Below are positions 1,896 to 8,073 of a DNA stretch of 64,000 nt, one piece after another. The number at the start of each line of letters is the position of its first letter. The first letter of the stretch is position 1. The stretch spans positions 11,408,001 through 11,472,000 of the forward strand of contig OX597838.1 in NCBI GenBank assembly GCA_951406725.2. The letters are read 5' to 3'. Made by a program: the position numbers and the translations under genes. This DNA is from Octopus vulgaris (taxonomy: Eukaryota). The notes beneath the pieces were generated by a model, which was not told the DNA's origin, made no database searches, and saw only the letters and a list, made by a program, of their open reading frames with translations.

Positions 1896-2287
1896 CTAGC
1901 AGTATCGCCCGGCGTTGCTCGGGTTTGTAAGGGAAATAACTATATAAGCATTTTTAGAGATGTAAAGTATAATAGCCATCTCAATATGGCTAACCACAAA
2001 GGGGGATGTTACTGTAGCTTTTTACGTTCTGAGATTTAATAAATTTTTAGAGAGTTACTTCCCTTATATATGCAAAAAAGGCATTAAAAATGGGAAAAAT
2101 TGATGGTAATTTTTTTTTTAAATCGTAGACTCATCGTAGACGCGCGCTAATACCCAGAAGGGCTCAATATGAATCACGACTATAAGATACCCGCTTTTGG
2201 TTACACTGCACCGCAAAATGTGGGAGTAGTTAGGAATCTAAATCGTAGGAGACAGACAGCACACAACCTCACTTTTATATATAAAGA
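1896..2287 (-). mobile_element. Non-autonomous Helitron, copy 1
   Basis: 5' TC(TTTATATATAAAAGTG), 3' hairpin CCCGAGCAACGCCGGG then CTAG, inserted between A and T, no TSD. Confidence 0.85.
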
Positions 2288-2306
2288 TGTGCCGAAGAGA
2301 ACTCAC

Positions 2307-2409
2307 TGAATTTACTTGTTGCGTTGATTTCCAGTCGAACTGCTGATAACAATGGGTTTCTAAAGCCACTGCCACCGTTTACCAGCGCCACCTGTAAATA
2401 CGGCATCTC
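2307..2409 (-). CDS. ovo: Ovo-like gene, coding exon 3 (103 nt; EMPYLQVALVNGGSGFRNPLLSAVRLEINATSKF)
   Basis: Acceptor ttttttgtttttcctatttcag| and donor A|GTGAGT (2306-2301); phase 0 in, phase 1 out. VNGGSGFRNPL resembles the (FV)NGGHGIKNPL motif I recall upstream of the zinc fingers in invertebrate Ovo/Svb. Not in the ORF track because it is short. Zinc fingers were not found in the window. Confidence 0.8.
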
Positions 2410-2835
2410 CTGAAATAGGAAAAACAAAAAATTTAGATATATTAACTAGGGATTCAATAAGTCAGTGGTTGTGTTTCGCGTTGTTAAAGTAACAAACGAA
2501 ATTTAATCTAATGTTTATAAACAAGTGGCTTAACGAGAAACTAATTTAAGCATGCTGTAGGTTTTGTTTTTTTTTTTCGAAAATCACAACTTTGAGAATT
2601 TTAGGCCGAACACTGTATTAAATGATAAATGAAAAGTGAAAGTGAAAAATGATCAAGAAAAGTGCTACGAAATATTGGAGATTCTCGACATGCATATAAA
2701 CAAAGAAGTCTAATTTAAGTGGCGGAAGTGTGAGTATGCTTGGTTGCTTTGGTGCAAAAGCTATCAAGGTCATCTGCGCATACATACATACATATATATA
2801 TATATATATATATATATATATATATATATATATAG

Positions 2836-3037
2836 ACGTCAACAAGAGACTATGGCATTACAACCAGCCAGGAACAGTCTTCGCTACATTTGCGGTACCT
2901 GCCAGAGGGAGTGTTTGTCCAGGATAGGACTACACAGCCACAGCAGGAAATGTATCAGGACATGAAATGTAAAAGCCGGACTAGACTACTTTATGCGCAA
3001 CTCCATTGTCTCCCGAGACAAAAAGGATGCCAACAAC
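2836..3037 (+). mobile_element. RTE-type LINE 3' end
   Basis: YICGTCQRECLSRIGLHSHSRKC* is the C-terminal zinc-finger motif typical of RTE/BovB ORF2, followed by a short 3'UTR and (AAC) tail. Confidence 0.75.
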
Positions 3038-3400
3038 ATATATATATACATATATATATATATATATATATATATATATATATATATATATATATATATA
3101 TATATATATATATATATATATATATATATATATATATATATATTATGTATATGTATATGTATATGTATATGTACACGTGATATAAAATGCCGCAAACTAG
3201 CTCCTGTGCAAATATTGCAAAACTTTTGTCTCGCCTGAATCATATAAAGAATGGTGGCGTTATAAATTAATGGAATGAGTGGAATTAAATACTTATGGGT
3301 TTCTGTTGTAAAAAGCAAACAACAACAACAACAACAACTTAATTTTAAAGAGCACGGGTGTATATGATATAACACACCAATATATTTGATTTATCTAAGA

Positions 3401-3830
3401 CAGTGCTTTTCAAACTTTTTGCTGGAGCGGAACCCCAAGGAAACATTCCACTGGCTCGAGGAACCCTTGTGCAATAATTTAATAGTTTTATGCACACACA
3501 TCTGCACAGGAGAATTAAAAATTACTGCCGATTTTAGCAGTATTGTAACTTCTTGCGGAACCCCTGGACTGTGCTGGCGGAACTCTAAGGTTCCGCGGAA
3601 CCCTGGTTGAAAACCACTGTTCTAGATTCAAGTGCCGCCAAGGTCGACTTTGCCTTTCATCCTTTACGAAGTCAATAAAATAAGTACCAGTTGAACATTG
3701 GGTCCGATGTAATTGACAAGCTCCCTTCCCCAAAAAATTTCAGGCCTTGTGCCTTTGCAGGAAAAAAAAATTATGCCTTTCTCTGTCTCTAATTTTATGC
3801 ATCATTTAAACGTTTTCTTAAATTTTATAC
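3401..3830 (+). mobile_element. hAT-type MITE plus captured SINE fragment (truncated composite)
   Basis: TIRs CAGTGCTTTTCAAAC / GGTTGAAAACCACTG (3401-3619); the whole 430 bp matches 52590-53020. Confidence 0.75.
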
Positions 3831-5994: not shown

Positions 5995-6355
5995 TATGGC
6001 TGCCCCCTCGTTATCGAGTATGGTCATTGCACGAAGCTTAACTGTTATTGGTGCTGTGATCGAATGTGACTTTTTAGCCCAGCCAAAGATCTACAATGTC
6101 TTGTACAGAATTGGCTACTAAAACTTTTACCGGCAATAGCCGGCTGTAGTTGTAACTGGGCTTCATGTACCTTTGCATGTCGTTTAAGTCCTCCTGCCAA
6201 ATTACACTCTCTTCCACATGCCTGACAGATATGATTAGTATGGTGTTTAACACCACCACCAGTGGCCAGGTTGTCACTCATCTGTCTCGCTTTATGACTA
6301 CGAAGATGACTCGAGTCCAGCTTTACTGAGGCAGGGTCTTGCACTGACATGTGTC
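5995..6355 (-). mobile_element. RTE-like LINE 3' end with two C2H2-like fingers
   Basis: CQACGRECNLAGGLKRHAKVH and CTRHCRSLAGLKSHIRSQ*, then a short UTR; embedded in (ACAT)n. Confidence 0.65.
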
Positions 6356-6544
6356 AGAAATAATCGGACATACATACATACATACATACATACATACATA
6401 CATACATACATACGTACGTACGTACATACATAATCGGAGGTGAGAAGTCAAATATATGTGAGAAGAGGAAAAAGAAATTAAAGGAAACCAATCTGACATT
6501 ACAAACTAAAAACGTTCCTGTACCCCAGACAAATACTCATACGT

Positions 6545-6765
6545 AGCTGAAACGTTAGCACACCGGGCGAAATGCTTAGTGGTATTTCGTCTGCCGTTAC
6601 GTTGTGAGTTCAAATTCCGCCGAGGTCGACTTTGCCTTTCATCCTTTCGGGGTCGATAAATTAAGTACCAGTTGTGCACTGGATTCGATGTAATCGACTT
6701 AATACCTATGTCTGTCCTTGTTTGCCCCCTCTGTGTTTAGCCCCTTGTGGGCAATAAAGAAATAT
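6545..6765 (+). mobile_element. SINE family A copy
   Basis: Matches 27261-27493. Other partial copies at about 10445-10575, 11376-11487, 16190-16485, 20880-21060, 31570-32015, 32570-32780, 37970-38110 and 54450-54661. Confidence 0.85.
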
Positions 6766-7394
6766 ATTTCAGTCCCTATTTTCTCGAATCGCCCCTCTTT
6801 TATCCCCAGAAAACCTTCAGCTCGTGGTTTTTGTTTACACATTAGGTCAGCTTGTTTCTGAATCTCATTGCAAAATTTGAAGATTCGTTGCAAAATGGCA
6901 ACATCGAAGCTTATATCATTTCAGTAGCATTTTTCCACACACACACACACACACACATACGTGTATGTGTGTGTTTGTGTGCGTGTGCGTGTGTGTGTGT
7001 GTGTGTGTGTGTGTGTGTGTGTCTGTCTGTGTCTCTGTGTATGTTGTATAAATGAAGTACGGAAAACTTATTTGGATTTTTATGCATTTTAAGTGTACAC
7101 GCGTTTCATGAAATTAACTGCCAAGATTTTGTAATTGATTGTTGATAAAATTATAGAATCTTTTCAATCTAAATCACAGACTTTTTAACTAATTTTGTTT
7201 AGCTAAACACTTTGAGACTTCGGATACTTGGTTGAAGGTGTCACGTAGAACACGGTTTACTGTTAGCGTTTTTGACAAAATTTTGTATTTTAGAAGTTAT
7301 TTCGTGTTAACATATGAGAGGGAGAGAGAGAGTTTGAGAAGAAGAAAAATGATAAATAGGAGAAAGATAAAGAAAATGTATTAGTTAAAATTAC

Positions 7395-7597
7395 CTTAAA
7401 TTTGTTCAGGAAACACATTTCCCGTAAATTACCGTCGGTTTGTAATGTATCTGGGTCCGTCTGACTGTCATTCTGATTATCACCGGGGTTGTTGGAATAT
7501 AAACTGTCCTTAATTTCACGCAAATCACTTCTAGAATGTTTGTTATTTTTCGTATTGAAATTTTCCTGAAAATTTGGTAAATTTCCACAGCAAATGT
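7395..7597 (-). CDS. ovo: Ovo-like gene, coding exon 2 (203 nt; DICCGNLPNFQEN...LREMCFLNKFK)
   Basis: Acceptor ttctttatattttcag| and donor AAG|GTAATT. Open frame entering in phase 1 (matches exon 1) and leaving in phase 0 (matches exon 3). Confidence 0.8.
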
Positions 7598-7688
7598 CTG
7601 AAAATATAAAGAATAAATTACCATCATAACAATCCAAAAATATAACGAGTAATTTTCAATAGCGAAGATTAGAAAATATAGCGAATTA

Positions 7689-8073
7689 TCTTTATATATA
7701 AAAGTGAAGTTGTGTGTCTGTCTTCTACGATTTAGATTCCTAACTACTCCCACATTTTGCGGTGCAGTGTAACCAAAAGCGGGTATCTTATAGTCGTGAT
7801 TCATATCGAGCCCTTCTGGGTATTAGCGCGCGTCTACGATGAGTCTACGATTTAAAAGAAAATTTACCATCATTTTTTCCCATTTTTAATGCATTTTTTT
7901 GCTATTATATAAGGGAAGTAACTCTCTAAAAATGTATTATTAAATCTCAGAACGTAAAAAGCTACAGTAACACCCCGCTTTGTGGTTAGCCATATTGAGA
8001 TGGCTATTATACTTTACATGCTTATATAGTTATTTCCCTTACAAATCCGAGCAACGCCGGGCGATACTGCTAG
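7689..8073 (+). mobile_element. Non-autonomous Helitron, copy 2 (same family, inverted relative to copy 1)
   Basis: A|TCTTTATATATAAAAGTG ... GCAACGCCGGGCGATACTGCTAG|T; aligns end to end with 1896-2287 at roughly 90% or more by eye. Confidence 0.85.

Follow-up and report, generated by a model that had tools for sequence, protein, structure and literature searches.

We analysed a 64,000-nt stretch of the Octopus vulgaris genome (contig OX597838.1, positions 11,408,001 to 11,472,000 of the forward strand; hereafter the window), in which two short Helitron transposons lie in opposite orientation on either side of exons 2 and 3 of a gene that, judged from its sequence, is ovo (shavenbaby, OVOL). 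The gene is read from the minus strand and its last two exons lie beyond the window start. Coding exon 1 (14930..15281, 352 nt, ending in phase 1) opens with MPKSLLV, which we take to be a SNAG-like start. Exon 2 (7395..7597, 203 nt, phase 1 to 0) is poorly conserved beyond octopuses. It is separated by intron 2 (2410..7394, minus strand), which holds dispersed repeat copies able to pair with copies in intron 1, from exon 3 (2307..2409, 103 nt, phase 0 to 1), which codes for a conserved VNGG..NPL motif. Exon 4 (180 nt, L021 8967-8788) and exon 5 (L021 2940-2648) encode the four C2H2 fingers. Exons 2 and 3 have AG/GT ends, and the intron phases of the model are 1, 0, 1 and 1. The five-exon model yields a protein of 376 aa, matching NCBI O. 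sinensis protein P0002 in 373 of 376 columns. Its best relatives, at 60-66% identity, are annotated as ovo, lin-48 and OVOL1. The N-terminal MP(K/R)xxLV motif aligns among ovo relatives, and the VNGG..NPL motif is found in nine of ten aligned ovo proteins, being absent from the turtle OVOL1 row; a literature search on the role of this motif found nothing relevant. The annotated relatives, the aligned motifs and the four-finger block bear out the name ovo given to the gene in an earlier reading of the window (the original prediction). That prediction had treated further exons between 7395 and 2409 as a threat to its reading, and the five-exon model contains no further coding exon there. The NCBI O. 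vulgaris model P0001 omits the 180-nt, in-frame exon 4, which encodes zinc fingers 1-2, and the contig of sequencing run X2 described below fits its inclusion; P0001 without exon 4 is either an annotation error or a minor isoform.

Copy A of the Helitron (1896..2287, minus strand) lies in intron 3 in the gene's own sense, with its 5' TC at 2287, its 3' CTAG at 1896-1899 and the target A at 2288. Copy B (7689..8073, plus strand) lies in intron 1 antisense to the gene, with its 5' TC at 7689 and the target A at 7688. Aligned in opposite orientation (1896-2288 versus 7688-8073), the two copies are identical in 376 of 408 columns (92%), with 19 gap columns, among them 10 nt deleted from copy B, which lies upstream. 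Both have the form A|TC...hairpin...CTAG|T and both turn their TC ends toward the exons, so that reverse-complementary repeats are present in both introns flanking exons 2 and 3, close to the splice sites. Only 91 intron bases separate copy B from the exon 2 acceptor (7597), and 19 separate the exon 3 donor (2307) from copy A. The layout thus agrees with the original prediction, which had described two highly similar, opposite copies of ~390 bp with their 5' ends facing the exons, and had given the same two distances.

Identity, descent and abundance of the Helitron copies

Canonical Helitrons are defined by a 5' TC and a 3' CTRR end (PMC4067079); they also carry a palindrome of 16-20 nt some 11 nt from the 3' end and insert between A and T with no duplication of the target. 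In an alignment of 40 copies, made up of the top 20 matches of each of copies A and B, TC follows the target base in 39 and the end is CTRR in 39 (CTAG in 38). The start reads A|TC in 38 copies, T follows the 3' end in all 40, and the printed flanks have no evident target duplication. Copy A carries a 16-nt subterminal palindrome (1908..1923, minus strand) 12 nt from its 3' end, with a predicted stability of -6.2 kcal/mol. The longest ATG frame within copies A and B is 39-40 aa. At six of eight fetched PF14214 (RepHel) loci, a 3' end identical to that of the 390-bp element at 30/34 to 32/36 positions was found, and at five of these it lies ~120 nt past an open frame of 1365-1727 aa; no match to the 5' end of the element was found at the fetched RepHel loci. 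Copies A and B, described before as Helitrons, are canonical non-autonomous ones: they agree with the known class in TC, CTAG, palindrome, A|T target and a 3' end shared with RepHel loci, and nothing about them is unusual. Loci L101, L102, L103, L105, L106 and others hold many stop-free RepHel frames of 1,300-1,740 aa, which score equally and lie on different chromosomes. They may represent an autonomous family that was active recently; its 3' end is related to that of the 390-bp element.

Within the ungapped columns, copies A and B are 96.3% alike, while each is closer to its nearest relatives on other chromosomes (98.5% and 98.4%). In a tree of the 40 copies, a branch with 100/98 support separates A from B and the end branches are 0.5-0.8% long, although the bootstrap had not fully settled. 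Because the two copies belong to different subfamilies, they represent separate insertions. They are independent and young, and stem from an abundant, clustered family. A local duplication, in which one copy hopped to give the other, was considered and ruled out by the tree and the nearest-neighbour identities. A third full copy of the family, 95.5% identical to copy A, lies at L024:2654-3054, ~37 kb past the window start and beyond the ovo 3' end. Many contigs from DNA runs connect 2141 back to ~2045 within copy A (window 2045-2141), suggesting that some members of the family carry an internal duplication.

An internal 26-mer of the element has 3,135 exact matches in 2.8 Gb, a lower bound for the copy number of the family. 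Counting by the 3' end gave 23,429 exact matches, which we rejected as an overcount because sister families have the same end (loose ends at 1928; one partial hit in 40 random 10-kb stretches); pair statistics based on the 3' end were replaced by those based on the 26-mer. Among the first 100 listed 26-mer matches (93 Mb of C1), four form inverted pairs within 7 kb, versus 0.4 expected without clustering, and three of these four pairs are near-full-length and 85-94% alike. Scaled from these 100 matches, ~125 such pairs would be expected genome-wide by extrapolation, and an inverted Helitron pair is therefore ordinary. Closeness to splice sites is scarcer: on assumed gene and exon numbers, the genome-wide expectation for loci of this family with a pair close to both splice sites is 0.003-0.25 at <=100 nt and 0.02-2.2 at <=300 nt.

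Predicted pairing, splice sites and reading frame

The duplex between copies A and B is predicted to contain 372 base pairs at -633 kcal/mol, versus about -80 for either arm alone, and none of the other 21 inverted matches in the ovo pre-mRNA is as long or as strong. The long pre-mRNA duplex foreseen by the original prediction thus stands as a prediction of folding. Once it had formed, the exon 3 donor would be separated from the exon 2 acceptor by 110 nt of intron, with the donor and the pyrimidine tract uncovered. At positions -23 to -4 of the acceptors of exons 2, 3, 4 and 5, the T count is 14, 15, 4 and 13 of 20, respectively. The exon 4 acceptor (L021:8967, ~1 kb beyond the window start) thus has almost no T tract, and back-splicing to exon 2 would therefore be favoured.

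Competing pairs also exist. Dispersed repeat copies at 14837-14432 and 10892-10460 in intron 1 are inverted with respect to copies at 6767-6546 and 3752-3390 in intron 2; the inverted matches linking the two introns include one of 219 nt at 89% and one of 187 nt at 91%. These repeats are presumably SINE-like (short interspersed nuclear elements). Pairing between them would leave exon 2 as the only enclosed exon, and a circle of that exon would not be in frame.

Exons 2 and 3 together measure 306 nt and have phase 1 at both outer ends. The predicted circle has no stop in the coding frame, a junction codon AAC and two in-frame ATGs, each as originally described. Joining exon 1 directly to exon 4 leaves an open frame of 274 aa; the double skip would thus keep the frame and remove the NGG-NPL motif, which lies in exon 3, again in line with the earlier account. 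The absence of stops was also considered as a sign of design and rejected: in-frame, stop-free circles arise from three of the six possible internal exon blocks of ovo (2-3, 4 and 2-4). The open circular frame is due to the intron phases and not to the Helitrons, and the endless reading frame follows from an exon structure that we infer to be far older than the insertions.

Transcript and insertion evidence from sequencing runs

Of 24 sequencing runs, all available as assembled contigs, 20 have exon 2, and four (X2, X7, X8 and X10) were aligned to 1760-2770. In X2, which is probably an RNA run, a single 1241-nt contig covers 2302-2416, i.e. exon 3, and no contig of this run covers the unique intron flanks. 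The overhangs of the 1241-nt contig correspond to the neighbouring exons, with seven letters equal to the end of exon 2 (one mismatch) and five equal to the start of exon 4. The length of the contig equals 196 nt of exon 1, 203, 103 and 180 nt of exons 2 to 4 and 559 nt of exon 5, and both ends lie in simple repeats. The contig therefore fits a linear five-exon mRNA, with 115 of its letters aligned and the remainder reconstructed from its length. No back-splice or skip joint was found in the X2 contigs over 1760-2770, a region that excludes exon 2 and copy B, at a depth of 5.6, at which a rare circle would be undetectable.

The original prediction had also raised the question of whether the insertions occur in other individuals and species, and for copy A this can be answered in part. 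One contig each in X7 (organism A), X10 (organism C) and X8 (organism B) runs from intron through exon 3 into the 5' end of the Helitron, by 20, 25 and 27 letters, respectively, a reach that falls below the 31-letter bridging rule. The intron sequence of B and C is ~3% divergent from that of the window. Copy A thus appears to be present under all three organism labels, as judged by its 5' junction in genomic contigs. No empty-site joint 1895-2289 was seen among 15 of the 31 joints. Contigs over the Helitron sequence itself stem from many copies of the family, and none could be assigned to this locus for A-to-I editing.

Known systems and competing explanations

In Drosophila laccase2, inverted DNAREP1_DM pairs of only 69-75% identity drive an abundant circle and, on expression plasmids, are necessary for it (PMC4617980), and DNAREP1 is DINE-1, a non-autonomous Helentron (PMC4067079). 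Laccase2, together with PlexA, resembles the ovo locus in having inverted short non-autonomous rolling-circle transposons near exons, long flanking introns and lineage-restricted insertions whose pairing is expected to bring splice sites together. The two differ in that the laccase2 circle is demonstrated, abundant and made of one exon, whereas the ovo circle is predicted and would span two exons with a 5-kb intron inside, between arms that are 92% alike. Moreover, the element at ovo is a canonical TC/CTAG Helitron, and its host gene codes for a transcription factor in a high-ADAR animal.

For mammals, it has been argued that young transposons give rise to most circular RNAs (circRNAs) as by-products (PMC8516420). 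Inverted Alu pairs are, like the repeats in ovo, young and abundant in introns, with many competing pairs per gene and a by-product model for their circles (PMC8516420), whereas the ovo case concerns a DNA rolling-circle element in a mollusc and a circle that is predicted only. Rolling-circle translation was shown in transfected cells for the human tau 12->7 and 12->10 circRNAs (PMC9825173), which share with the ovo circle a length divisible by three, the lack of stops, a similar size (288 nt for 12->10) and an in-frame start (12->7); the tau circles exist, whereas the ovo circle is predicted from sequence and its translation is hypothetical. Total RNA of O. vulgaris yielded 296 high-quality circRNAs at low levels, related by the authors to ADAR (PMC9699675), and young repeats are the chief A-to-I targets across animals (PMC9989829). 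Searches of the open-access literature turned up no work dealing with this locus or with a circRNA from octopus ovo.

The ovo locus is thus a predicted instance of a known mechanism and a good candidate, open to direct test, for the source of a by-product circRNA. As it is an unusually clean instance, with 92% arms, 110 nt of free intron and a weak competing acceptor, it would be a good test locus for the suppression of repeat-driven back-splicing by high ADAR activity in cephalopods proposed in PMC9699675. Should a circle or skip isoform turn out to be abundant or regulated, a recent transposon pair would have reshaped the output of a conserved developmental regulator.

The reading we favour, with a confidence only a little above even, is that chance insertions led to the predicted duplex and that this gives rise to a minor 306-nt by-product circRNA, with ovo mainly spliced in linear form and no selected function assumed. 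Two independent Helitron insertions would have ended up by chance inverted beside exons 2 and 3. Provided that intron 1 has not yet been spliced by the time transcription reaches intron 3, 5.4 kb further on, the arms could pair over ~370 bp, so that the exon 3 donor would lie only 110 nt of intron away from the acceptor of exon 2. This acceptor is strong and would then compete with the one of exon 4, which is T-poor and 3.3 kb off; the yield of the circle would be kept low by ADAR editing and by the splicing of intron 1 during transcription. Several points weigh against this reading. The by-product circle is a prediction, and reads showing a circle, a skip or editing were not seen. The laccase2 case shows that such a layout can yield a very abundant circle instead of a minor one. 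The closeness to splice sites is rarer than the Helitron family alone explains, so that a chance origin has to draw on the genome's many further repeat families; given these families, and 22 inverted matches in the ovo pre-mRNA alone, one such locus is uncommon yet within the reach of chance. Finally, the apparent sharing of copy A by three organism labels fits neutral fixation but also retention.

It is also possible, though doubtful, that the pair is inert, because intron 1 is removed before copy A is transcribed, the arms are edited and melted, or nearer repeats pair first, so that no measurable circle or skip is formed. The sole transcript observed fits the linear form, and circRNAs in O. 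vulgaris total RNA are few, low and tied to ADAR by the authors (PMC9699675). The pre-mRNA contains 21 further inverted matches, several of them between introns 1 and 2, which point in the same direction, yet none is as long or as strong as the Helitron duplex, which ends <=110 nt from both splice sites. Likewise, a distance of 5.4 kb and an intron separate the arms, but repeats of ~400 nt promote co-transcriptional circularization in flies (PMC4617980), and the competing exon 4 acceptor is T-poor. At the other extreme, the pair may be a co-opted switch that is controlled by ADAR or by tissue and diverts ovo pre-mRNA to an abundant circle, perhaps translated in a rolling circle, and/or an exon1-exon4 mRNA. 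We consider such a switch unlikely. Its skip product would be a 274-aa protein that keeps the N-terminal motif and the zinc fingers and lacks the VNGG..NPL segment. Because this segment is kept in nine of ten ovo rows and absent from the vertebrate OVOL1 row, such a protein would resemble the shorter OVOL1 architecture. Both products are in frame; however, this property comes from intron phase and is common to three of six blocks. Stop-free tau circles are translated, aided by ADAR, in transfected cells (PMC9825173), but the ovo circle would code mainly for the poorly conserved exon 2, and transposon-linked circles have been argued to be mostly by-products (PMC8516420). A switch would also accord with a closeness to both splice sites that is uncommon for the family and with the apparent occurrence of copy A under several organism labels, whereas the insertions are young (end branches 0.5-0.8%) and from different subfamilies, and the X2 contig fits the inclusion of exons 2 and 3. 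The fuller version, in which insertions predating the split of close octopus species built an ADAR-tunable ovo switch with an abundant 306-nt circle (perhaps translated) and an OVOL-like skip mRNA, seems to us quite improbable, and translation of the circle is less likely still than a co-opted switch. Of the original interpretation, the identities of the Helitrons and of ovo, the geometry, the frame and the predicted duplex hold, and laccase2 supplies a direct precedent; the existence of a circle or skip isoform, its role as a regulated switch and its translation gained no support from our data. The frame follows from intron phase, and the insertions are independent.

Three further features lie in the ovo introns. 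In intron 4 (L021 ~8708-7930), a hairpin with 291-nt arms of 94% identity starts ~80 nt past the exon 4 donor; it resembles a miniature inverted-repeat transposable element and is a likely ADAR substrate. Intron 3 contains a self-complementary stretch of ~220 nt (window 1072-1289, 73% self-inverted match). In intron 2, a stop-free frame of 102 aa with two C2H2-like motifs (window 6045-6353, minus strand) lies between ATAC microsatellites and resembles the 3' end of a putative retroelement.

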